A stretch of 46,172 nt of DNA from Methanothrix sp. (GTDB lineage Archaea; Halobacteriota; Methanosarcinia; Methanotrichales; Methanotrichaceae), in the NCBI GenBank assembly GCA_040770465.1, contig JAXGJB010000019.1, forward strand, positions 1-46,172, in the 5' to 3' direction. Positions 25,218-36,030 of this stretch are shown piece by piece. Position 1 is the first letter of the stretch, and every line of letters begins with the position of its first letter. The notes beneath the pieces were generated by a model. That model had not been told where the DNA came from. It saw only the letters and a program-made list of their open reading frames with translations, and searched no databases. The translations under genes were made by a program, and so were the position numbers.

Positions 25218-28175
25218 TCAGGGCTCCGACTCTGCAAACGCGAGATTATACGCGAGTTCGCCCTCCAGCTCGCGGGAGATATTTTTCATGGTCTGGTTGA
25301 GATCTCCAGAGCTGAAAGCCGCGACGGAAGAGAAATTGCCGCCGGTCGCCTCTGAGATCTTCGTGAGGTTATGATACTGATTTTGTGACGCTTCGAAGCT
25401 CTCGTTGATCCCGATCCCTATTGTGAAGATCTTGCATCCCGATTCGTTCGCCTCGGATATGTAATCGTCCAGCTTCTCCCCCGGCTCGAACTCGCTGTAC
25501 CCCGTCAGGAAGATTATTATCTTCGACGAGTTGGGGGGCACAGTTGCAGGATCGTGCAACGCCGCAAGGGTGCCGTTGAGCCCCTGGTCGTAGCTGGTGA
25601 GATCCGTCTCGATGCACTTTTCGGAGAGGTTATCCAGGATCTCAGCGAGCCGGTCTTCGTTCCCTTGCAGGGGGGCAGGACCGAAGAGTAGCTCGCTCTC
25701 GTGGTCCCAGCTCACAATCGCGACGGTGGCGTTTTCGAAGGCGGACCATCCCGAGACGATATCTGCGCTCTCGTTTTCAGCTAGACGATAGTACTTTTTC
25801 ATGCTGCCGGAGGTGTCGAAGGCGAAGACGAGAACTGTGGTGTTGTTCGGTGGAGCTACATTCTTAATACCACAATCTATGGATTTGTTTCTATCGCCAG
25901 GTCCGATGATGATCGGATCTGTCATACCAGTTGAGTTCGCGTCGCTGTCAATTTTGTCATCGGAACCTTGATCCTGAGGGCTGAACTCGAATCCAGGAGG
26001 ATGTTCAAACTTGATGCGGTATTCTCCGATTGAGAGGTTCGTGAACAGGTAGCGACCTGAATCGTCGGTCAATGTGGTCTCAGACCCGGTCTCGTTGATC
26101 AGACTGACCAAAATGCCGGGAACACCATTCCCGTCCAAACCCTGTATACCATCGCCGTTCGAGTCTTTCCAGACCAGGTCTCCAATTGACCCCAGACCGT
26201 AGATCCCGCAGTCCACAGACAGGTTCGTATCACCTGATACGAGGTAAATCGGACCTGTAATCCCGGTAGACTGGTTCGCGTCGCTGTCGTTCTCGTCATC
26301 GGTCTTGTCCATCGGGCTGAACGTGAAATCCGAAGGCAACAAGAACTTGACACGGTACTTGCCACTTCGGAGGTTCGTGAACAGGTAGCTACCGTTGACG
26401 TCGGTTGATGTCGAATTGACCTCGGAATCGGTATCGTTCAGGAGCTTTACCTCTACCCCTGAAACTCCAGACTCGCCAGGGTCCTGGACCCCGTTGCCGT
26501 TCGAGTCGTTCCAGACGAAGTCTCCGATAGACCCAGGAGGAATGGGGACGATACCGCAATCGACGGACATGTTTCTATCGCCAGCTCCGATGATGACCGG
26601 ATCTGTCATACCAGTTGAGTTCGCGTCGCTGTCGTTCTCGTCATCGGTCTGATCCATCGGGCTGAACCAGAACCCTGACAGCAACTCGAACTTGACGCGG
26701 TATTCACCGCTTGAGAGGTTTGTGAATTCGTAGTAGCCGGTACCGTTGGTCGTTATGTTATCCTGCTCGGTCCCGATCGCGTCGGTCAGCTTTACTTCGA
26801 TACCAGCTGCACCATCCTCTCCTGGGTCCTGGATCCCGTTACCATTGGAGTCGAGCCAGACGAGGTCACCGATCGATCCAGGTGGAATGGGGACTATACC
26901 GCAATCGACAGACGAGTTCCTATCGCCAGGTCCGATGATGATCGGATCTGTCATACCAGTTGAGTCCGCGTCGCTGTCGTTCTCGTCATCGGTCTGATCC
27001 ATCGGGCTGAACCAGAACCCTGACAGCAACTCGAACTTGACGCGGTATTCACCGCTTTGAAGGTTCGTGAACAGGTAGCTACCGTTGATGTCGGTTGATG
27101 TGGAGTTGAGCTCGGAATCGGTATCGTTCAGCAGCTTTACCTCTACCCCTGAAACTCCAGACTCGTCAGGGTCCTGAATCCCGTCGCCGTTCGTGTCGTT
27201 CCATACAAGATCTCCGATCGATCCAGGAATGCTGAAGATACCGCAATCGATAGACATGTTCATATCGCCAGGTTCCAGGATGATCAGATTAGTCATCCTT
27301 GTCGACTGGTTGGCGTCGCTGTCAAGACCGTCGTCGTAGCCCTGGTTCTCGGGGCTGAAACTGTAGCCGGTCGGAAGATCGAAACCGACCGAATAGTTGC
27401 CTGGGACCAGGCCAGTGAAGATGTAGTTGCCTGCTTTATTCGTCGAAGTAGTCTTGTTCGACGATTCGGTCGAGTCGTAGAGGTGTACGGTGACGTTATA
27501 GACTCCAGGTTCTCCCAAGTCCTGGATGCCGTTGCCGTTCAAGTCGTTCCAGACATAATCACCCAATTTAAAAGTATTTTCTAAACAGAATATAGCTCTA
27601 GCCTCAGAATCGCTGAAAAAATTTCCGCCATGGTCATCAGATAAATATTTAAGATTTTTAAGATACTTGGAATCATTACCAAAGCCTATCGTAATTATCG
27701 TAATGTTTTTGTTAATTTCGTAATTGTAGGGGTAACCTTGTTTACCATCAGAGAAAACTACAATAATCTTTTTATCATTTTGGTTAGCTTTATCAAACAA
27801 TTTATTTGATAATCCAATTAGGTCTTTAATAGTTGTATCGTTTTCAACTGTAGAATGTTCTTTGATATAGTCTAATTCCAGATATACCTTTTCAAAATCT
27901 GAGTCAGAGGTTAGTTCCACTTTATGAGGAGCGGCATTATGAAGGTAATATACCAGCCCAATTTTGTCCTTACGGCTGTCCATCTGTTTCACGTAACATT
28001 TCGCTATTTCTGTACGATTGAATTCTGGATCCGACTCATCCATACTATCCGAATTATCTATCACCAAAACGATTGCTTTATCATCAGAACTAAATGATGG
28101 ATCACCCTGACCATTCGCCACTAGCATGATCAAAAACAGGGCAATCTCGATCCCCAGCATAAACTTTAGCCTCAT
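25218..28175 (-). CDS. Secreted adhesin-like protein: vWA, five SdrD-B-like domains, vWA (985 aa)
   Basis: Signal peptide; MIDAS IDNSDS; five (S)IGD-x-VW-x-D-x-NG-x-GIQ...DSDA...[IV]DCGI units; second MIDAS FDTSGS. Confidence 0.9.
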   Translation of the reverse strand: MRLKFMLGIEIALFLIMLVANGQGDPSFSSDDKAIVLVIDNSDSMDESDPEFNRTEIAKCYVKQMDSRKDKIGLVYYLHNAAPHKVELTSDSDFEKVYLELDYIKEHSTVENDTTIKDLIGLSNKLFDKANQNDKKIIVVFSDGKQGYPYNYEINKNITIITIGFGNDSKYLKNLKYLSDDHGGNFFSDSEARAIFCLENTFKLGDYVWNDLNGNGIQDLGEPGVYNVTVHLYDSTESSNKTTSTNKAGNYIFTGLVPGNYSVGFDLPTGYSFSPENQGYDDGLDSDANQSTRMTNLIILEPGDMNMSIDCGIFSIPGSIGDLVWNDTNGDGIQDPDESGVSGVEVKLLNDTDSELNSTSTDINGSYLFTNLQSGEYRVKFELLSGFWFSPMDQTDDENDSDADSTGMTDPIIIGPGDRNSSVDCGIVPIPPGSIGDLVWLDSNGNGIQDPGEDGAAGIEVKLTDAIGTEQDNITTNGTGYYEFTNLSSGEYRVKFELLSGFWFSPMDQTDDENDSDANSTGMTDPVIIGAGDRNMSVDCGIVPIPPGSIGDFVWNDSNGNGVQDPGESGVSGVEVKLLNDTDSEVNSTSTDVNGSYLFTNLRSGKYRVKFLLPSDFTFSPMDKTDDENDSDANQSTGITGPIYLVSGDTNLSVDCGIYGLGSIGDLVWKDSNGDGIQGLDGNGVPGILVSLINETGSETTLTDDSGRYLFTNLSIGEYRIKFEHPPGFEFSPQDQGSDDKIDSDANSTGMTDPIIIGPGDRNKSIDCGIKNVAPPNNTTVLVFAFDTSGSMKKYYRLAENESADIVSGWSAFENATVAIVSWDHESELLFGPAPLQGNEDRLAEILDNLSEKCIETDLTSYDQGLNGTLAALHDPATVPPNSSKIIIFLTGYSEFEPGEKLDDYISEANESGCKIFTIGIGINESFEASQNQYHNLTKISEATGGNFSSVAAFSSGDLNQTMKNISRELEGELAYNLAFAESEP
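25866..27570 (-). repeat. Intragenic array of about 345-bp SdrD-B repeats with near-identical DNA blocks
   Basis: The block at 26601 recurs at 26946 (+345); the block at 26371 recurs at 27061 (+690). Confidence 0.85.
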
Positions 28176-30490
28176 GATATCCCTCCCATCACCACGTCAC
28201 CTTCCTCCGTCCTCATGTTGATGACGTTGACCCCGGCAACACCATCACCCGTAGCCGTTATATTAACCCAACCCGGCCAGCCGGTAGCGCCGATCCCATC
28301 GGAGGCCTGCGCCTCGTTGACGGCGGCGAGGATCTTCAGGCTCCTCGACTCCCCCGCTCTCACGCCCCTCGCGATCCAGGTGAGGGTGGAGGTTCCGTCG
28401 GGGTTCTTCGCCATGTTGACGTCAGCGCCGGCAGGAACCGTCTCCTTCACCACCAGGTCGGCGGGAAGGGTCTCGATTACGACTATGTCCTTGGGAGCGC
28501 CCCCGCTCGAAGCGTGAGCCGACACATTTCGGAGGACATCCTTGAGGGTGACAGAGTCGAGACCGCCGACGTGGTAGAACCGGCCGCCCGTCATGTTCGC
28601 CAAATTGCTCAGGTTGTCGTACATGAGGGGCGACTCGATCTCGTTGATCGCGACGCCGATGGGGTATATCGCGTAACCCCTCCGCTTAAGCTCGGTTGCC
28701 AGGTCGCTGAGGTTCTCGCCGGGCCGGAACTCGTCGGGGCCGGTGATGAAGAGGACGATCTTACCATCTCCGCTGAAATGGTCGCCGAAGTCGTCATCGA
28801 CCTCCAGGACCCCCCGGAGCCCTGCCGCGTAGACCGTCTGGTCGCTCTCGCCGCAGAGTCCGGAGAGGTTCGCGATGGCGGCGAGGACATCCTCGCGGCT
28901 CTCCATCAAGGGCCGCGGCGGGACCATCAGCAGATCTGCGCCCGAGCCCGCGCCCCCGGCGCCGTCTTCGTCCCAGCCGATGATCGAGACGTTGCTGAAG
29001 TTCGCCTCCGCGAAGGCAGCCCGGTCCTCCGCGTCCATCCCCTCGTAGGGAAGCCTCATGCTCCCGGAGACATCGAAGGCGAGGAGAGCGTCGATCGCCG
29101 CATCGGGCCTCGAGACGGTGAGGTTGATCACGCCGGTGGGCTCGTCGGTGCCGTTCCAATAGGGGGTCGAGCCGAAGATGGCGTTCTGGACGATGTTTAT
29201 GTTGTTGACCTTTGAGGCGTCGTCGGACGGGGCTGAGGCGCATTCGGGGCAGGTGGCGCTTGAGCATTCGCAGACGATCTTCTTAGAGGGCTCTCCATCG
29301 GGGCCGGGGGATGGGGTGCAGTTGTAGTAAATAGATCCATTTCCGAAGATTAAATTTGTGCCAGTAATATTATAGCTGTCTCCAAAATAAATGTATTTAA
29401 CTTTTGTGATATTACAACTCTGGTTCTCCTCGCATGGTACGACCAATAACATTTTCTCTTCTATTGGTTCTTCAATTTTTATATTGTTTCCAGTTACGTT
29501 TTGCACTGTATAGCTCATTTTAGAATCAGGCACTCCAAGGGTGAAAATTCCATGATTTTCGGAGCTTACCTTGAATGTCTTAATCCATTTTTCTCCAATG
29601 TAGAAATAGTTTCTCGGACCGCTGGAGTCTTCCACCATAGGTTTCCATGTGAATTCTTTATTATTTCCCTCAATGTCGAAATCCTGGATTGAGTATGAGA
29701 GATTCGATGGGGTAAGGTATCTAATCGTAACATCTTCGCCAGCTAATCTCGTCATATTTCTGTAAATATTGACAAAGACATCTTCCACAGTTAAATTAAT
29801 TGCAGGATAATATAATCCGTCAGTTATATTTGCTATTTCTTTGAGAATGATTTCTCCTTTCTCATCTATAGAGAATCCCACAGTCCATATCTCTATTCCT
29901 TCTTCTTTGGCTCGGTTTGCCTGAGATTCCGGATCAATGGTTGGAATGTAGCGATCGATAGGTTCAGGCAAGCCATCTGACAGGAATATGATGCATTTCT
30001 TATTATTGCCATTATCTTTTTCGAACATATTGATGGACGCATTTAGCGCAGTATCGAAATTAGTGTCTCCGCTTGGAAGGACGCCTACTCCGGATATGTC
30101 TGCATCTAGTTTAGAGATTATATCATTAAAATTATTTGTTAAATCGACTGATCTTGAATCAATTATTGTTTCATTCCAGCAGATCAGCCCGGCTCTATCC
30201 CTAGCGGGATCTAGATAATTGATGAATTTTTTCGTAGCTTCAAGTCGCCCATTAGTTCTATCACTATCGTTAATGCTACCTGAGTAATCGATCGCGAAAA
30301 CCACGTCTAACGGTATCGGATCTCCCATGCCTTCCACGACAAGAATAACAGTACTTGAAGATCCCTCACAGATCAAAGGTAGAAAAATTTCATGTAATGT
30401 TATATTCATATAAGCCGCTGCGAGAGGCGCTCCAAGCATAAGAATTAAGAGGTAGATCGCGCTAATAATCGTATAGTATTTTGATTTCAT
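28172..30490 (-). CDS. Secreted protein with two vWA domains and a C-terminal DUF11-like beta domain (772 aa)
   Basis: Signal peptide; DVVFAIDYSGS and LSDG; FDVSGSM; Cys/Pro-rich linker; DIVVIETLP...LTW motif; ATGA overlap with the next gene. Confidence 0.88.
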   Translation of the reverse strand: MKSKYYTIISAIYLLILMLGAPLAAAYMNITLHEIFLPLICEGSSSTVILVVEGMGDPIPLDVVFAIDYSGSINDSDRTNGRLEATKKFINYLDPARDRAGLICWNETIIDSRSVDLTNNFNDIISKLDADISGVGVLPSGDTNFDTALNASINMFEKDNGNNKKCIIFLSDGLPEPIDRYIPTIDPESQANRAKEEGIEIWTVGFSIDEKGEIILKEIANITDGLYYPAINLTVEDVFVNIYRNMTRLAGEDVTIRYLTPSNLSYSIQDFDIEGNNKEFTWKPMVEDSSGPRNYFYIGEKWIKTFKVSSENHGIFTLGVPDSKMSYTVQNVTGNNIKIEEPIEEKMLLVVPCEENQSCNITKVKYIYFGDSYNITGTNLIFGNGSIYYNCTPSPGPDGEPSKKIVCECSSATCPECASAPSDDASKVNNINIVQNAIFGSTPYWNGTDEPTGVINLTVSRPDAAIDALLAFDVSGSMRLPYEGMDAEDRAAFAEANFSNVSIIGWDEDGAGGAGSGADLLMVPPRPLMESREDVLAAIANLSGLCGESDQTVYAAGLRGVLEVDDDFGDHFSGDGKIVLFITGPDEFRPGENLSDLATELKRRGYAIYPIGVAINEIESPLMYDNLSNLANMTGGRFYHVGGLDSVTLKDVLRNVSAHASSGGAPKDIVVIETLPADLVVKETVPAGADVNMAKNPDGTSTLTWIARGVRAGESRSLKILAAVNEAQASDGIGATGWPGWVNITATGDGVAGVNVINMRTEEGDVVMGGIS

Positions 30491-30533: not shown

Positions 30534-31157
30534 TCAACATTCTCTCACATATCCGAAGTTTATGGTTGTATTTTTCGGGATATCTTTACTTAGAACAACC
30601 AATACTCCGTTATGATTTTTGCTATATATCTCAGCATCTTCATCTATAATTTTAGTCGGCCACCAATTACAACTATCTGGAGGTATCTTAATAATACGTT
30701 TATTTTCATAACTGTATTGATAATTGGGACCTTCTCCTGTTTTTACGGTGTATCTACCGTAAGGTACTTCAAATAAGTAGTGGCCCGTATCGTTGGAGTA
30801 GATGCTAAAGAGGAGTGTTTCAGTTTCGCCATCATAAAGTGAAACGTTAACCCCCTTAAGTCCTTCTTCACCACTTTCCATGATGCCATCCCCTTCTTCA
30901 ATTATATTATTCGGTGGAGTGTCATTCCAAACACATCCACTAATGGTGCCGTTAGGAATAATAAATCCGAAATCGGCTATATCGATATCCTCTCCATTGA
31001 TAGTGACATTAGTTGAGATATTAGAATTCATGCCCAATTCGTTTGAGCCTGAAGGCTGGGAAAAAGCAGGAAAAGCGACCAGCAGGATTGTCGTCATCAC
31101 AGCTGTGACGCATCTACATGCCATTGGCAGCCATCCTGCAAATTGACGAAATAGCAT
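30534..31157 (-). CDS. Secreted SdrD-B-like protein with an extra N-terminal strand segment (candidate cap subunit)
   Basis: Signal segment; NVTINGEDIDIADFGF precedes GTISGCVWND...G-x-Y-x-F; C-terminal NTTINFGY is also present. Confidence 0.75.
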   Translation of the reverse strand: MLFRQFAGWLPMACRCVTAVMTTILLVAFPAFSQPSGSNELGMNSNISTNVTINGEDIDIADFGFIIPNGTISGCVWNDTPPNNIIEEGDGIMESGEEGLKGVNVSLYDGETETLLFSIYSNDTGHYLFEVPYGRYTVKTGEGPNYQYSYENKRIIKIPPDSCNWWPTKIIDEDAEIYSKNHNGVLVVLSKDIPKNTTINFGYVREC

Positions 31158-31205
31158 TGCGCAAATTTGGACCTCACGTCAAGGACTTGTACTCTTGAGT
31201 TGCGA

Positions 31206-31249
31206 GTGATGATGGGTTAAGCACAGGCCAACCCATCAAAATTCATCAC
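31206..31249 (-). terminator. Intergenic stem-loop after the 154-aa gene (terminator or mRNA stabiliser)
   Basis: TGATGGGTT-N11-AACCCATCA at 31210-31238 with a possible GTGA/TCAC extension. Confidence 0.45.
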
Positions 31250-31275
31250 CCATATCCATTAGAGTCTTTCCTCAA

Positions 31276-31740
31276 CTACGGTGCTGGTATACCATCACTA
31301 TCTATATCGTCTGCCCCGGCATTGGGTGTCGTATTAATCATATCCTTCAACGCTGGCTGATCCATTGGTATCTTTACTTCATAAGTACCATTGGTAAGTC
31401 CATCAAATATGTAGTTTCCCTTTTTCCTATCTTGACTATCATTTGTGGTGGTGGTGCTGATAGGCTCATCTCCTTGCCAGAGTTCAACTCGCACGCCAGG
31501 AATTCCCAGCTCGCCATCGTCCTGAATCCCATTCTTGTTTGAGTCCTCCCAGACCCAATCACCTATCGAGAAAGTTTGAATTGGCCGCACATAAAACCCA
31601 AAGTCAATTGTAAAGTTATCTGCGCCATCAACAATAGCAGTAGCATTAACGGCTCCACCAAGCTGCTGGGCAAATACCGTCTCCGCGCCAAGGCAGAGCA
31701 CCGCTGCGGCCAATAAGAGATAAATGCGCTTCATCCTCAT
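31276..31740 (-). CDS. Secreted permuted single SdrD-B-like domain (candidate major pilin)
   Basis: Signal peptide; DNFTIDFGFY precedes SIGDWVWEDSNKNGIQD; ends at DIDSDGIPAP. GAGGAGG RBS; start 31740 or 31734. Confidence 0.8.
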   Translation of the reverse strand: MRMKRIYLLLAAAVLCLGAETVFAQQLGGAVNATAIVDGADNFTIDFGFYVRPIQTFSIGDWVWEDSNKNGIQDDGELGIPGVRVELWQGDEPISTTTTNDSQDRKKGNYIFDGLTNGTYEVKIPMDQPALKDMINTTPNAGADDIDSDGIPAP

Positions 31741-31826
31741 CCTCCTCGTACCCTAGCTTCCAGATTAAATTTTCATGTTCACTTCTTGTTTTATTAATCT
31801 TTGCGTTGTCGTCATATTCATAGCGC

Positions 31827-33044
31827 TTAAGACCGCTCTCCCAAATAGCTCTCTGACATCACCAGGCGACCGAGCCGATCATTCCCATTCACAAGAATGC
31901 CGTCGCTATCTATAGAATCGTTGCTGCCTACGTTCGGCTCCGTCGGCCACCATTGAGTCCCATCGTCCCGTTCTGGGAGGGTTGAAATGTCCACACATAC
32001 ATAGAAATAGCCAGAGTATAGCCCATCGAAAAGGTAACTACCATTGCCATCGGTTTCGCAGGTTTCGATCAGTCTGCCCCCCGAATCGAAAAGTAAGACC
32101 TCCACGCCGGGAATTCCCGAATCATTTCCGTCGTCCTGAATGCCATTCTCGTTCAGATCCCACCACACAAAATCTCCGATCGCACCGGTGCCTGGAGGTA
32201 CGGCTACGTACCCGAAGAGCCGCGGTGGATCCGACGGGATCGACACGTCAAAGTATACCCTGTCTGAAGCGTCATAGACGGGAAGGCTCAGCTGATCCTC
32301 GAAGACGTTCCCGTTCGCGTTGTAGAACCTGACCTGACCGCGAGCGAGGGGAGACCAGACTGCGAAGTCGGGGCCGGGATGGAGGAGGCCGACCCCCGCT
32401 CCCCGATCGGGATCTGAGCTGTTTACCATCGTTCCCGGAGGAAGACCGTATGCCCAGGTGAGCCTTACGTCGCCGACCGCCACCTTGGAGATCGGGGGGA
32501 CCGACTTGACGTACACCGAGTCGTTTCGGTCGTAGGCGCCTGCGACGTCCCCAAAGTCTCCGTATACGAGCCTCGGGTAGGGGGGGCTGAAGGCCCAAAG
32601 GTCGAGGCCGAGGTCCTCGTCGGTAGGACCGACCCTGGACCCCACCCGGCCGTAGGTGGAGTTTGTGAGCCTTATGTCCGCGATCTTTACGGGACCCTGG
32701 CCTACGTGAAGGTAGAGGGGGTCCTCAACATCGTAAATCCCTCTGACGCCCCCCACATCGAGATACATCACCTTCACCGGGAGCTGCTCGCCCTCCGGAA
32801 CTGAGGTGAAGTCCTCGACTATCAGAGTCTTCTCCGGGCTTCCTGGATGCTCAATCGACCCGAACTCAAACTGCGCCGAGGCTGAGGCTATGAGGAGGAG
32901 AAATGCGAATTTCGTCAGCCTCAAGCTCTCGTCTCTCAAATAGACCAACGCTCCTCTCGTCTCCTTAACCATAACGATCCGCCGACTTTTCGAGGGTCCT
33001 GAGGTTCCAATCGCCCTCCTCAAACCGGATGGCTCACTCTTCAT
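31827..33044 (-). CDS. Secreted fusion of a three-fold repeat domain and an incomplete SdrD-B-like domain (candidate adaptor)
   Basis: DIRLT...GSRV...D-x-D-x-G repeats, then AIGDFVWWDLNENGIQD...SIDSDG with no terminal IDxG motif. Real start probably 32972 or later. Confidence 0.8.
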   Translation of the reverse strand: MKSEPSGLRRAIGTSGPSKSRRIVMVKETRGALVYLRDESLRLTKFAFLLLIASASAQFEFGSIEHPGSPEKTLIVEDFTSVPEGEQLPVKVMYLDVGGVRGIYDVEDPLYLHVGQGPVKIADIRLTNSTYGRVGSRVGPTDEDLGLDLWAFSPPYPRLVYGDFGDVAGAYDRNDSVYVKSVPPISKVAVGDVRLTWAYGLPPGTMVNSSDPDRGAGVGLLHPGPDFAVWSPLARGQVRFYNANGNVFEDQLSLPVYDASDRVYFDVSIPSDPPRLFGYVAVPPGTGAIGDFVWWDLNENGIQDDGNDSGIPGVEVLLFDSGGRLIETCETDGNGSYLFDGLYSGYFYVCVDISTLPERDDGTQWWPTEPNVGSNDSIDSDGILVNGNDRLGRLVMSESYLGERS

Positions 33045-33277: not shown

Positions 33278-34093
33278 CTAAATGCTGAGGCGGATGGCGT
33301 TTGGCGTTATGTAGCCGATGCTTCTGGGGTAGGCAGAGGGGCTCGACAGGTCAAAATATACGTCATCGGGCTCGTCGTAGATCGGCGGGCTCGACTGAGT
33401 CTTCACGGGAGCCCCCGGATCGATATATAAGTTCCCGTTTTCGTTGAAGAACCTGAGCTTACCCCTGGCTCCAGGATACCAGACGTCAAAGCTCGGACCC
33501 GGATGCAGTACTGAACAGACCAGGCCGTAATCTGATGCTCCCTCCTGAACAAAGGTGGCCGGATCTCCGTGGATGGAGCTGAGCCTGACATCTCCAGTCC
33601 CCAAAATCCCGACCGGAGAAGCGGTCTTTATGTAGACCGAGTCGTTGATGTCAAACTGGCCAGTAATCCCAACCAGCTCATCAGTGAAGACGATCCGCGG
33701 CAGCCCTCGCGGAAATTGCGTTAGATCCATTTCAAGGTCGCCGTCGCCTGCCTTCACCTTAGAGCCCGGCGGACCGAAGGTCGAATTTGTGAGCCTTATG
33801 TCGTTTACACCGACTTCGGTCCCAGTCAGGACTTCGCCGATGTGAAGATAGAGAACGTCACCCTCGTCGAAGATATTCAGGTTGGACCCCATCATGTCCC
33901 AGTACCCCATCTGTACCGGAGTCTGCACGAACGGCTTTGAAGACGGAAGGTTATCGGCGAAATCCTCCACGATGATGTTGGCCTCACTGCTGCTGTTTGT
34001 CACCCTGAACCCGAACTCGTCATCTCCCATCCCTACTAAGCCAAGGGTCAAGATTAAGCCCGCAAAGATGCAGGCCGTAATTGGCCTCTTCAT
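33278..34093 (-). CDS. Secreted three-fold repeat family protein
   Basis: AGGAGG RBS before ATG 34093; signal peptide; NDIRLT/GDVRLS/NAIRLS repeats. Confidence 0.8.
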   Translation of the reverse strand: MKRPITACIFAGLILTLGLVGMGDDEFGFRVTNSSSEANIIVEDFADNLPSSKPFVQTPVQMGYWDMMGSNLNIFDEGDVLYLHIGEVLTGTEVGVNDIRLTNSTFGPPGSKVKAGDGDLEMDLTQFPRGLPRIVFTDELVGITGQFDINDSVYIKTASPVGILGTGDVRLSSIHGDPATFVQEGASDYGLVCSVLHPGPSFDVWYPGARGKLRFFNENGNLYIDPGAPVKTQSSPPIYDEPDDVYFDLSSPSAYPRSIGYITPNAIRLSI

Positions 34094-34131
34094 TCTCCCC
34101 TCCTGATATCTTAAGACATTACGACAGAGTC

Positions 34132-34890
34132 TCATGCGGTGAGTCGCACGTTGTTTGGAACCACAAACCCGAAAGGATAACCACCCATCAGAACGCTTGG
34201 CAGAGAGAGGTCTATGTATACGTCGTCGCTGTAGTCATAAATTGGCACACCCATCCCATCAACGTTTCCGTTGCCGTTGAAGAACCTCAGAGTGGCCATC
34301 GGTCCGGCCGCAGATAATGGAACTATCATCGGAATAACCGGATCATCGTTGTCTGGATGGTAATCGAGGACCTTTGTTCCAGGTGCAAGACCTCCAACGC
34401 GAACCAGCCGGACATCGTTGGTGGTGGTCCTGGCACCTACTGGGGCAGAGTTCGTCACCAGTAGATAAACCGGATCCGCCAAGTCGTAACCCTGGCTGCC
34501 ATAGTGGTCTGCGTAATAAATGCCAGCCAGCTGACCAGGCAGATCTTCCAGGGGCTTGTTTATGTCGTTGTCTGCGGACGTGACTTTGGTCCCCGCAAGA
34601 TACGAGTAATAGTCGGTGAGCCGTATGTCGTTGGCTTCGATGAGGTTGTCCCCATCCATGTCCAGATATATGACGTCCTCGTCATCGTAGATACCGGGAT
34701 TTCCGATATCCCAGTAACCGAAGTCTGGATTCAGCGTCAACGGAAAATCCACGAGAAAACGTCCCACGTCGGCGTCCCCGGCCATTACCTTGGATCCGAA
34801 CTGCCCCAAACTACCGTTGAGGCTCAGGGCCATAACCAGTGCTGTGATCATACAAGCTTTCTTCATTCCCATCAAATTAACCCCCTTCAT
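34132..34890 (-). CDS. Secreted three-fold repeat family protein
   Basis: Signal peptide; FGSKV, NDIRLT, NDVRLV, NNVRLT. Start may be 34872 or 34866. Confidence 0.82.
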   Translation of the reverse strand: MKGVNLMGMKKACMITALVMALSLNGSLGQFGSKVMAGDADVGRFLVDFPLTLNPDFGYWDIGNPGIYDDEDVIYLDMDGDNLIEANDIRLTDYYSYLAGTKVTSADNDINKPLEDLPGQLAGIYYADHYGSQGYDLADPVYLLVTNSAPVGARTTTNDVRLVRVGGLAPGTKVLDYHPDNDDPVIPMIVPLSAAGPMATLRFFNGNGNVDGMGVPIYDYSDDVYIDLSLPSVLMGGYPFGFVVPNNVRLTA

Positions 34891-35026
34891 TCTTCATTCA
34901 GGCTTTACAGTCTATCGTAATCTTATAAGTACTTTTTTGGGATTTAGGAAGATGGTGGAGATATAAGACGCTGACGACGGGTTTTAGATGAAAACAAACT
35001 GTGTCCGCCCCTTGAATTAAATTGCC

Positions 35027-35075
35027 TGCGGCCACCCCGCCGTAAAGGACGGGATATTGCTTCGGGCCGCACGCC
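35027..35075. mobile_element. IS200/IS605-type end hairpin remnant (MITE/PATE-like)
   Basis: TGCGGCCACCCCGCCGTAAAGGACGGGATATT; closely similar to the copy at 44981. Confidence 0.55.
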
Positions 35076-35325
35076 CGGATATCCGGATTTCAGAACTCGG
35101 CGAGTCTTCGTTGCCCAGATTTCCTCGATCTGCATGAATGAGAACGCCGTCGATTTCCTCTGGATAGTCACAGACGTTTTACCGATCTAAACGAACAGAA
35201 AAACTGGCTAAGGTTTTCTCCATTCCGACCTAAAGGTCGAGGTATTCGTGACCTCTGCGCCCCCGAAGTAATAAAACAGTGTTCGACCCCCTATCCTTTG
35301 AAGAATGGCGGGGGTCGATGGAAGT

Positions 35326-36030
35326 TCAAATGGACATCCTGACGTCGTTTATGGTCACCATGTAGAATGGGTACTGGGTATCCATATAAACCACATCCCC
35401 TTTATCGTATATGGCATATCCCCCGTTGTTGATATTCCCGTTCTTGTTGAAGAAGCTGAGCATACCTGGAAGGGTCGAGGTCTTCAGGCCATTATCCGGA
35501 TTGATGTCGCTTACTCTGCTTCCAGCCGGGAAACCGGTATAATTGGTGATCCTGACGTCGTTGGATTTTATCTCGCCTGGGACCACGTTGAGATATACAG
35601 GGTCCTCCAGGTCGTAGGCCCAGTCCCCCCCAGCATCAAAGAAACGGAGCTCTGCTCTGGGGTTGGTGGCGGTCCCGAACTTGGTCAATTGCTGTCCGAT
35701 ATCGTTGTCGGCTTTGCCCACCTGAGACCCCGCTGGAAGGTCGCTGAATTTCGTCAGCCGGACGTCATTTTCGCTCACCACATCGTCATCGGGATTTATG
35801 TTTATGTAGACCACCTCATCAGCATCCAGAACATGGTCGTCGTCGGCATCCCAGAAGGCGAAATCAGGGGCGATGTAAAAGGGGCTCAGCGCTCCCCCCA
35901 AATCAACATCGTTCCACTCAACCTTTGATCCATACTGCATATCGTCGCTGGCCCAGGATGCCGAGGAGGCCACCAGAACCAAAACCAGCATCATCAAGGC
36001 CGCTCTGCCAAAATGAAGATATCCCATCAT
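35326..36030 (-). CDS. Secreted three-fold repeat family protein
   Basis: Signal peptide; three units GS-x-V...D-x-D-x-G...F-x-D...D-x-x-[DE]-x-VY...NDVR. Confidence 0.85.
   Translation of the reverse strand: MMGYLHFGRAALMMLVLVLVASSASWASDDMQYGSKVEWNDVDLGGALSPFYIAPDFAFWDADDDHVLDADEVVYININPDDDVVSENDVRLTKFSDLPAGSQVGKADNDIGQQLTKFGTATNPRAELRFFDAGGDWAYDLEDPVYLNVVPGEIKSNDVRITNYTGFPAGSRVSDINPDNGLKTSTLPGMLSFFNKNGNINNGGYAIYDKGDVVYMDTQYPFYMVTINDVRMSI

Follow-up and report, generated by a model that had tools for sequence, protein, structure and literature searches.

A stretch of 46,172 nucleotides from Methanothrix sp. (GCA_040770465.1, contig JAXGJB010000019.1, positions 1 to 46,172; hereafter the window) contains three neighbouring ORFs, designated here genes A, B and C, whose products carry SdrD_B sequences. 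A first-pass annotation had proposed these ORFs, and we confirmed their extents and their location on the minus strand. The genes, the segments relevant to this work and the neighbouring secreted proteins are as follows.

33278..36030, minus strand: three secreted paralogs (285, 252 and 234 aa) sharing the N-domain of A; candidate sheath (SH) proteins
31827..33044, minus strand: gene A, 405-aa ORF; signal peptide, all-beta N-domain of ~225 aa, SdrD_B core lacking the closing strand
31878..32183, minus strand: SdrD_B core and proposed acceptor of A, residues 288-389 (positions 2-94 of the 112-position Pfam profile); placed identically by a second search
31276..31740, minus strand: gene B, 154 aa; signal peptide (1-24), donor hairpin, spacer, SdrD_B core ending 5 residues after DSD
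31594..31653, minus strand: putative donor hairpin of B, residues 30-49, ending in NATAIVDGADNFTIDFGF; matches the C-terminal hairpins of the solved SdrD B1 and B2 domains
31294..31572, minus strand: SdrD_B core and proposed acceptor groove of B, residues 57-149 (positions 2-89 of the 112-position Pfam profile)
30534..31157, minus strand: gene C, 207-aa ORF; signal peptide, donor hairpin, SdrD_B domain that includes a closing hairpin and is thereby complete
30963..31019, minus strand: putative N-terminal donor hairpin of C, residues 47-65, ISTNVTINGEDIDIADFGF; from alignment, D62, G64 and F65 invariant in 6 sequences
30549..30605, minus strand: C-terminal closing hairpin of C, residues 185-203, ending in NTTINFGY; from alignment, V188, T198 and G202 invariant
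25218..30490, minus strand: two downstream secreted VWA proteins (772 and 985 aa), syntenic with the cassette

Split SdrD_B proteins encoded by genes A, B and C

The three proteins exceeded the gathering score of the Pfam SdrD_B family (PF17210; 29.7 bits), with 87.8 bits for B (residues 58-152 on profile positions 2-89 of 112), 79.9 bits for A (residues 288-389 on positions 2-94) and 35.3 bits for C (residues 74-152 on positions 5-76). Signal peptides were called by eye as a hydrophobic stretch followed by A/S/G-Q, in agreement with the signal-like segments previously noted in all three translations. The true start of gene A is probably internal, near residue 25-36, that of gene C is probably M12, and a ribosome-binding-like GGAGG was found at gene B. 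Neither an LPXTG-type sorting signal nor a C-terminal membrane anchor could be seen by eye in the A, B and C translations, and Pfam and NCBIfam returned no TasA-type match for any of them. Pfam analysis of the eight proteins of the cluster detected only SdrD_B-related or VWA families, the remaining proteins having no match, and revealed no chaperone, usher, lipoprotein precursor or protease-activation step.

Protein B does not reach a complete SdrD_B domain, which spans profile positions 1-112 and ends with its closing hairpin in canonical order; the hairpin is found at the N-terminus instead. Residues 29-49 of B were aligned by MAFFT with the hairpin of the preceding unit of the 985-aa tandem protein, which is composed of five complete SdrD_B units between two VWA domains and in which all five units end in a hairpin (...S[IV]DCGI). 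With phmmer, residues 31-144 of B matched residues 419-521 of 10ps_A as a single stretch (E 1.3e-13 for the stretch), a segment comprising the terminal hairpin of SdrD B1, the linker and the B2 core, so that B matches SdrD in a shifted register; residues 30-54 also matched the B2 hairpin, a match that is weak on its own (E 0.53). The linker between hairpin and core has six residues (VRPIQT) and the protein terminates in DSDGIPAP, in line with the earlier description of a displaced domain hairpin, a 6-aa linker and a stop soon after DSD. The B core was superimposed by Foldseek on SdrD B1 (10ps and 4jdz) with rmsd of 1.1-1.4 over 72-73 columns and 38-43% identity, and the calcium motifs of SdrD_B are kept throughout the B family, Ca2+ binding itself being predicted.

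This architecture was conserved in all 22 distinct B proteins, each with the N-terminal signature N-x-T-[IV]-D-[FI]-G-[FL], a spacer of 5-9 residues and, the closing strand being absent, a tail of only 2-11 residues past DS[DN]. The spacer is comparable to the inter-domain linker of the 985-aa tandem protein (5-7 residues), as the first-pass annotation had supposed. The last strand of the hairpin, the putative donor strand, was the best-conserved segment of the family (0.94, vs 0.51 for the core), and protein lengths and both cut points were retained down to 37-45% identity. A second B gene in one genome (G009) has a segment of about 75 residues separating hairpin from core, the short-linker rule thus not being universal.

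Protein C combines both arrangements. MAFFT aligned its N-terminal segment with the hairpin of a preceding unit and its terminal NTTINFGY with the closing strand, here in canonical order, as had been proposed for this ORF, and both hairpins were present in all six C proteins.

The first-pass annotation had described A as ending at SIDSDG without a closing IDxG motif; the absence of the motif was upheld, but SIDSDG is followed by a 22-residue tail, ILVNGNDRLGRLVMSESYLGERS. The beginning of this tail resembles the first hairpin strand in the source genome and in one relative (G001), with no xIDxG closing strand after it, and the tail lies below pLDDT 50 in the predicted model. Across 16 A-family members (352-392 aa) the sequence following DSD varies, and a closing strand (xIDFG) was found in none. 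In the source genome and in G001 the tail could partly occupy the groove of A in cis, as a weak placeholder. The modelled C-domain of A matched SdrD with VIA Z scores of 8.9 and 8.8 (rmsd 2.9 over 98 aligned residues for the former); Foldseek and VIA matches to the A model were confined to the SdrD_B part, and barely probed the N-domain. The latter was modelled by AF2 as 11 short strands with pLDDT of about 90 and displays a threefold repeat in its sequence. We also considered that SdrD_B might be inserted within the N-domain, with the tail as its returning last strand, an arrangement that was dropped given that the relative P0065 keeps that strand ahead of SdrD_B. Among the matches listed for A in protein representatives, 149 of 150 were giant tandem-repeat proteins (1319-7796 aa). 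Judged from their sequences, A, B and C look like one staphylococcal-type calcium-binding stalk in pieces, each cut one beta-hairpin out of register.

Distribution of the gene set and its association with candidate sheath proteins

B-type short ORFs were detected in 6 of 16 same-genus genomes (G000 counted) and none was seen with the same query in 25 genomes of other genera. Genes A and C flank B in all six genomes, and A-type ORFs were seen in these six only, plus one example cut at a contig end. The eight-gene block holding A-B-C was syntenic in the five same-genus relatives whose flanks were examined, and named protein relatives belong to Methanotrichaceae. Conservation of the permuted architecture and of gene order, proposed earlier as a check, was thus found in 22/22 proteins and 5/5 relatives, respectively. 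A profile scan of genome contigs with the B alignment recovered 79 loci, nearly all bacterial by their record titles and corresponding to tandem SdrD_B matches; none had the B architecture, and just three short ORFs with a core were found, all at one locus. An HMM search of the source genome revealed no second split SdrD_B set, and its members of the N-domain family are the four clustered ones only. The two VWA proteins showed neither donor nor acceptor features, and no conserved donor-like segment at their mature N-termini.

Logan contigs from four metatranscriptome runs of one study included sequences identical to gene B in three (X1-X3), for which DNA carry-over is possible, and parts of A in two (X1-X2), while all four runs covered the three paralogs upstream. 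Such contigs cannot rank expression, and the parts left uncovered carry no information.

The paralogs (234, 252 and 285 aa) adjoining A fit the general features given for the sheath (SH) proteins of Methanotrichales in the portions of PMC11576556 available to us, namely a signal peptide, 150-350 aa excluding extensions, clustered paralogs and a subset with Ig-like extensions; the SH core is described there as two six-stranded antiparallel sheets. The N-domain family common to A and the paralogs was present in 13 of the 15 same-genus genomes and, elsewhere in the family, in 6 of the 9 other genera searched. We found no SH structure in the PDB and no match for the N-domain family in PHROGs, and an ESM Atlas search with the 285-aa paralog gave scores of at most 0.85 and no lead. 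Given that its N-domain fits the description of Methanotrichales sheath proteins, A may be the sheath anchor of a stalk. The term pilus used in the first-pass annotation is premature, and sheath-anchored stalk is a better fit for a set whose base subunit looks like a sheath protein.

Predicted hairpin placement and proposed assembly

The AF2 monomer of B left the hairpin unfolded, with pLDDT of 50-67 and no strands, next to a core with pLDDT of 80-93. When three copies of B were modelled with ESMFold2, ipSAE values of 0.58, 0.56 and 0.59 were obtained, vs 0.00 for the best control, with run-to-run contact agreement of at least 86% and partner pLDDT of at least 67. The ipSAE mark had been reached by 20 of 30 known one-chain pairs and by 1 of 23 single chains, a calibration that is only rough for a custom alignment and three copies. 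In the predicted trimer, residues 29-52 and 54 of one copy contact residues 55-67 and 115-127 of the following copy; with 47-49 paired to 62-63 and 41-43 paired to 58, the pairing is parallel. The modelled chain is open and head-to-tail, neither reciprocal nor cyclic. For B, the comparison of monomer and homo-oligomer models suggested in the first-pass annotation gave a monomer with the hairpin left free and an oligomer with the hairpin placed in the core of the neighbour, parallel to strand A. The trimer model indicates compatibility rather than binding, and it may reflect a memory of tandem SdrD structures from which the predictor rebuilds an intact domain.

In the consulted parts of PMC6232131, the staphylococcal B domain binds three Ca2+ ions, one of which, Ca3, bridges the N- and C-terminal strands and is held by one Asp on each of these closing strands; the closing strands run parallel and Ca3 is given as the most important site. 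Such a parallel, Ca3-bridged closure implies that an interface formed by a donated strand should be a calcium clamp loaded in shear, and makes the short spacer an argument against the hairpin folding back. We propose that the secreted proteins assemble by calcium-clamped donor-strand complementation into A-(B)n-C (n ≥ 1), a reading that we consider moderately probable. The three proteins would be cut upstream of the domain boundaries by the length of one beta-hairpin. Once outside the cell, A would have its open SdrD_B core completed by the N-terminal hairpin of B, the core of B would in turn be completed by the hairpin of a further B or by that of C, and C, closed by its own C-terminal hairpin, would end the chain. 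The donated closing strand (TIDFGF, with an invariant Asp, D46 in B, as the presumed Ca3 ligand) would lie parallel to strand A (IGD...) of its acceptor, the joint would be a shear-loaded calcium clamp formed with no chaperone, and the N-domain of A would be seated in the cell sheath, anchoring the stalk. What we infer is that the stalk assembles in vivo with n above 1, depends on calcium, is anchored in the sheath and is adhesive; the product may be a polymer rather than a fixed A-B-C chain, and the 405-aa protein may be a pure acceptor in this genome. The more extensive picture of an open-length surface fibre of register-shifted SdrD-B subunits, with an SH-core base in an amyloid-like sheath, a self-closed cap and shear-loaded Ca3-clamp joints, is advanced tentatively, as possible rather than probable.

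A fixed short heteromer would result if the B hairpin fitted only A and the C hairpin only B, yielding a three-bead stalk A-B-C, or four beads where two B genes exist, and no open polymer. Gene order equals chain order, two distinct B genes lie in series in G009, the sheath adhesins described in the available text of PMC11576556 have finite chains of Ig-like domains, and the contigs, which cannot rank expression, gave no sign of a B excess. However, B was accepted on B in the predicted trimer, and DFGF is common to the B and C donors, and A and B have similar strand A motifs, so that no specificity determinant is visible; dividing a fixed three-domain stalk among three genes would also bring no obvious gain. 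We regard the fixed heteromer as unlikely. Intermolecular complementation might instead not occur at all, with the hairpin folded onto its own core as in a circular permutant, or exchanged within closed, reciprocal domain-swapped B dimers. Predictors are unable to exclude non-native packing, and on geometric grounds a spacer of 7-9 residues might permit a U-turn in an antiparallel side-by-side dimer. Folding back is at odds with the closing strand being parallel to strand A, a geometry in which the connection in cis must span the entire strand, yet some relatives have a five-residue spacer that itself includes strand residues. The hairpin was not folded back in the AF2 monomer, the three-copy model was open and head-to-tail rather than closed, and co-inherited partners, one acceptor-only and one with a donor plus a complete domain, would be left unexplained, which makes this second scenario quite improbable.

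The first-pass annotation had itself named broken fragments of a tandem-repeat gene as a scenario that would undo its proposal. The ORFs would then be decaying remnants of a formerly continuous adhesin gene with no assembly function, and the A relatives P0062-P0064 and P0066 (262-291 aa) do lose similarity exactly where SdrD_B starts, in a frameshift-like manner. Against this, each gene has its own start and signal peptide, with the GGAGG in the case of B, the set recurs in six genomes, and lengths and cut points persist at 37-45% identity with the donor strand as the best-conserved part. Contigs identical to gene B in three of four RNA libraries of one study point in the same direction, weakly given possible DNA carry-over, and we consider decay very improbable.

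Relation to known stalks, donor-strand fibres and split domains

The closest resemblance is to the B-repeat stalks of staphylococcal MSCRAMMs (SdrD, SdrG, SdrC; PF17210), which share with A, B and C the domain family and fold, the DxNxNGxQD and DSD calcium motifs, the closing hairpin with its Asp and the linker length. MSCRAMM units, however, form a single polypeptide anchored to the wall by sortase, whereas here separate secreted proteins are encoded by an archaeon without sortase signals. Sortase-assembled Gram-positive pili, built of CnaB pilins, differ likewise in the LPXTG-type signal that we could not find by eye in A, B or C. In chaperone-usher pili and in the type V pili of Bacteroidia, the Ig-like or transthyretin-like subunit lacks part of its fold, which a strand of the neighbour supplies, and the chain is begun or terminated by specialised end subunits; the donor strand is C-terminal in type V pili. 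The proposed assembly would differ from both in having no chaperone, usher, lipoprotein precursor or protease step, in an organism without an outer membrane.

Among archaeal donor-strand filaments that depend on calcium and need no chaperone are Pyrodictium cannulae, built of CanA, a jelly-roll protein, and AbpX. As far as the accessible descriptions of CanA and AbpX go, a strand of each secreted subunit is inserted in the following one with Ca2+ at the donor-acceptor interface, and the AbpX abstract places that protein in the TasA superfamily. These are other fold families; here the fold is SdrD_B and the putative donor, a hairpin of two strands, is a homologue of the C-terminus of the domain itself. 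Protein A resembles the sheath adhesins in having a signal peptide, an all-beta N-domain common to three clustered paralogs and one Ig-like (SdrD_B) extension, but in the available text of PMC11576556 Ig-like chains lie within one protein, and neither incomplete domains nor separate complementing subunits are mentioned there.

If correct, the proposed assembly would add the SdrD-B fold to the known donor-strand assembly scaffolds, as a new fold class among chaperone-free donor-strand fibres, and would illustrate how a tandem-repeat stalk can be turned into a self-assembling polymer merely by a one-hairpin shift of gene boundaries. Methanothrix is central to the granules of anaerobic digesters and, to our knowledge, the attachment of its sheathed filaments to partners or surfaces is poorly known, for which the stalk would provide a concrete attachment organelle. 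Milles et al. reportedly measured unfolding forces above 2 nN for the SdrD-B-type fold; the joints would use the type of Ca3 clamp that reportedly gives B domains their rank as the mechanically strongest known folds. Each joint would then amount to a natural calcium-switchable protein ligation module, of interest for biomaterials.

An open-length SdrD-B fibre would also be a natural, calcium-locked split counterpart of SpyTag/SpyCatcher, an engineered CnaB2 domain split ahead of its C-terminal strand and reconstituted in trans, with the difference that in the engineered pair one strand is split off and an isopeptide bond provides the lock, whereas in the natural split there are two strands and calcium is the presumed lock. 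The resemblance of B domains to the parent domain of SpyTag/SpyCatcher is stated in the consulted parts of PMC6232131, and the relatedness of the folds was also apparent in our searches, with a Foldseek prob of 0.93 to 4mli_C and VIA Z scores of 5.1-5.2.

A split SdrD_B set in a cluster of secreted proteins

Eight consecutive genes, all for secreted proteins, occupy the minus strand of the window:

35326-36030, minus: 234-aa secreted paralog, of the N-domain family common with A
34132-34890, minus: 252-aa secreted paralog, of the same family
33278-34135, minus: 285-aa secreted paralog, of the same family
31827-33044, minus: A, 405-aa ORF, truncated SdrD_B
31276-31740, minus: B, 154 aa, truncated SdrD_B
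30534-31157, minus: C, 207-aa ORF, SdrD_B
28172-30490, minus: VWA protein, 772 aa
25218-28175, minus: VWA protein, 985 aa, with a VWA domain at each end and five complete SdrD_B units

Pfam SdrD_B (PF17210) was matched above cut-off by A, B and C, the matches in A and B being truncated (profile positions 2-94 and 2-89 of 112, respectively), and by all five units of the 985-aa protein over positions 2-112. Among the 40 SdrD_B matches in the window's own genome, A and B were the only short open frames with a truncated match. Units of the 985-aa protein end in DSDA, about 20 residues and S[IV]DCGI, followed after 5-7 residues by the next IGDxVW. In a MAFFT alignment, the hairpin that ends the preceding unit is matched by residues 29-49 of B (GAVNATAIVDGADNFTIDFGF) and by residues 47-65 of C, and the closing strand by the NTTINFGY of C. 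Independently of this placement, a phmmer search against PDB sequences aligned B residues 31-144 in a single unbroken stretch (E 1.3e-13 for the stretch) with SdrD 10ps_A 419-521, that is, the B1 terminal hairpin, the linker and the B2 core; residues 30-54 also matched the B2 terminal hairpin. B, which terminates in DSDGIPAP, therefore reads as one SdrD-type stalk repeat period cut one hairpin out of register. Both alignments agree with the first-pass annotation, which had described B as permuted, with an N-terminal hairpin copy and a core stopping soon after DSD, and the MAFFT placement bears out its view of C as having both an N-terminal hairpin and its own closing strand. Its account of A held in part: the xIDxG closing strand is indeed missing, but the ORF, said to stop at DSDG, continues for 22 residues, the first of which (ILVNGNDR) resemble the first hairpin strand.

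In the 985-aa protein no anchor was visible and the five units are flanked on both sides by a VWA domain; the protein may be a two-headed cross-linker. Directly past the B stop codon, region 31158-31275 (minus) contains the inverted repeat GATGGGTT(11 nt)AACCCATC, and 31741-31826, ahead of the B start, includes the AT-rich ATTAATAAAA and a GGAGG; from these elements B may have a candidate promoter and attenuator of its own.

Conservation and distribution

A word-indexed search with B returned 8 proteins of 143-179 aa (identity 56-100%), and a profile search raised the short proteins of the same build to about 21. The permuted build was conserved throughout, N-x-T-[IV]-D-[FI]-G-[FL] being present in 22/22 distinct B sequences, with a spacer of 5-9 residues before the IGD motif and 2-11 residues from the last DS[DN] to the end. 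The donated closing strand is the most conserved segment of B (mean majority fraction 0.94; strand A plus calcium loop, 0.70; remaining core, 0.51). The closing strand was absent from 16/16 A-class proteins compared (352-392 aa), whose tails are unrelated and 2 to about 35 residues long, and 6/6 C-class proteins had both hairpins.

In 41 related genomes searched, B-type short frames were found in 5 of the 15 other genomes of the genus, in addition to the window's own, and none was seen with the B query in 25 genomes of other genera. Gene order is likewise conserved: A and C flank B in 6/6 genomes with B, and the block paralogs-A-B-C-VWA-VWA-RNase HII is syntenic in 5/5 relatives whose flanks were fetched. 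Apart from one frame truncated at a contig end, A-type frames were seen only in the six genomes that carry B. No second split set was present in the window's own genome, nor any at 79 loci from a contig scan with the B alignment (nearly all bacterial by record titles). The conserved build, the matched A/B/C sets and the synteny therefore exclude the idea that these ORFs are accidental fragments; what was observed in the sequence is genuine, conserved and not a chance pattern.

One relative (G009) has two B genes, the second of which (L092, G009:C31; 211 aa) carries about 75 extra residues between donor hairpin and core, starting RIGDVIW, that look like a decayed core. The homologue of the 772-aa VWA gene in the closest relative (L102, G001:C1) is seen as a 233-aa and a 560-aa frame about 1.1 kb apart, which may reflect an insertion or a disruption. 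An N-x-T/S sequon immediately precedes the closing strand in 22/22 B proteins (residues 42-44 of B), in C (residues 196-198) and in the tandem 985-aa units; because bacterial SdrD_B proteins carry it as well, its role may be a structural one and not that of an archaeal glycosylation site.

Proposed donor-strand assembly

In B domains, according to the excerpted account of Milles et al. (PMC6232131), the outermost N- and C-terminal strands run parallel and close the fold, and Ca3, the site most crucial for stability, is held by one aspartate on each closing strand. With a parallel neighbour, a link in cis must retrace the entire strand, and the B spacer is as short as an ordinary inter-domain linker. 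In the AF2 monomer of B (12-row alignment) the core was predicted to be folded (pLDDT 80-93) and superposed on SdrD B1 with rmsd 1.1-1.4 over 72-73 columns, while residues 29-56 had pLDDT 50-67 and no secondary structure. Spacer length and predicted monomer are in line with the earlier proposal that so short a linker would keep the strand from folding back.

Three copies of B residues 26-154 were also modelled with ESMFold2, and the N-terminal hairpin was predicted to insert in the neighbour, as had been anticipated, with ipSAE of 0.58, 0.56 and 0.59; none of the three controls scored above 0.00. Contacts common between runs amounted to at least 86%, with partner pLDDT of at least 67. In calibration 20 of 30 known homo-pairs and 1 of 23 single chains reached the mark, figures that apply only roughly here given the own alignment and the three copies. 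On the donor side the confident interface comprises residues 29-52 and 54, and on the acceptor side residues 55, 57-67, 69, 71, 73, 80, 83, 86, 115-127, 131 and 133-138, with 47-49 pairing against 62-63 and 41-43 against 58 in the parallel arrangement of the native fold. The groove of the partner was itself left empty, so that the modelled chain is open and head-to-tail. The model indicates compatibility with insertion in trans, short of showing binding, and may well reflect recall of intact tandem structures.

We propose that A, B and C would leave the cell via Sec export, whereupon the hairpin of B would complete A, hairpins of further B or of C would complete B, and C, closed by its own hairpin, would end the chain. 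Ca3 would be rebuilt across each joint from the invariant donor-strand Asp (D46 in B, D62 in C) and the Asp/Asn of the acceptor IGD, so that assembly is expected to depend on calcium but to do without a chaperone. The same calcium-dependent, chaperone-free principle is reported, in the excerpts consulted, for AbpX and for cannulae, each of a fold family other than SdrD_B; A-B-C would be a new form of a principle already known. Donor-strand complementation is the best explanation available, and we lean slightly towards it; its main rival, in which the three proteins form a fixed A-B-C heteromer, we regard as rather improbable.

In the literature searched, a split SdrD-B assembly was nowhere described, and no listed paper joined 'donor strand' with SdrD. 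Among the matches listed, no SdrD_B/PF17210 title concerned archaeal fibres and no Methanothrix/Methanosaeta paper also mentioned 'donor strand', SdrD or 'von Willebrand'. The A-B-C assembly is worth an experimental test.

The N-terminal domain of A and a possible link to the sheath

The first ~225 mature residues of A share homology with the three paralogs encoded upstream. This family (A residues ~59-283 and the paralogs, 33278-36030 minus) is all-beta with a threefold D-x-V-Y...D-[IV]-R-L-T repeat, and the AF2 model of the A domain has 11 short strands at pLDDT about 90. It had no Pfam, NCBIfam or PHROG match, and occurs in 13/15 genomes of the genus and 6/9 other genera of the family searched; homologues are named Methanotrichaceae archaeon. 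RNA-library contigs covered the three paralogs in 4/4 runs.

In excerpt, PMC11576556 describes Methanotrichales sheath (SH) proteins as clustered, 150-350 aa long, with a signal peptide and an amyloid-like core built from two six-stranded sheets, a subset being extended by Ig-like domains ('sheath adhesins'). A and its paralogs fit this account, the match being by description; no solved SH structure was found. Should A and its paralogs be SH proteins, the stalk would be rooted in the sheath through A.

Four relatives of A (P0062-P0064 and P0066; 262-291 aa) match A as far as the junction ...LFGYVAVP..G, where they change to an Arg/Glu-rich tail, the pattern expected if a frameshift occurred within the opening codons of the SdrD_B part. 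Pseudogenes, an on/off switch and assembly errors are possible explanations.
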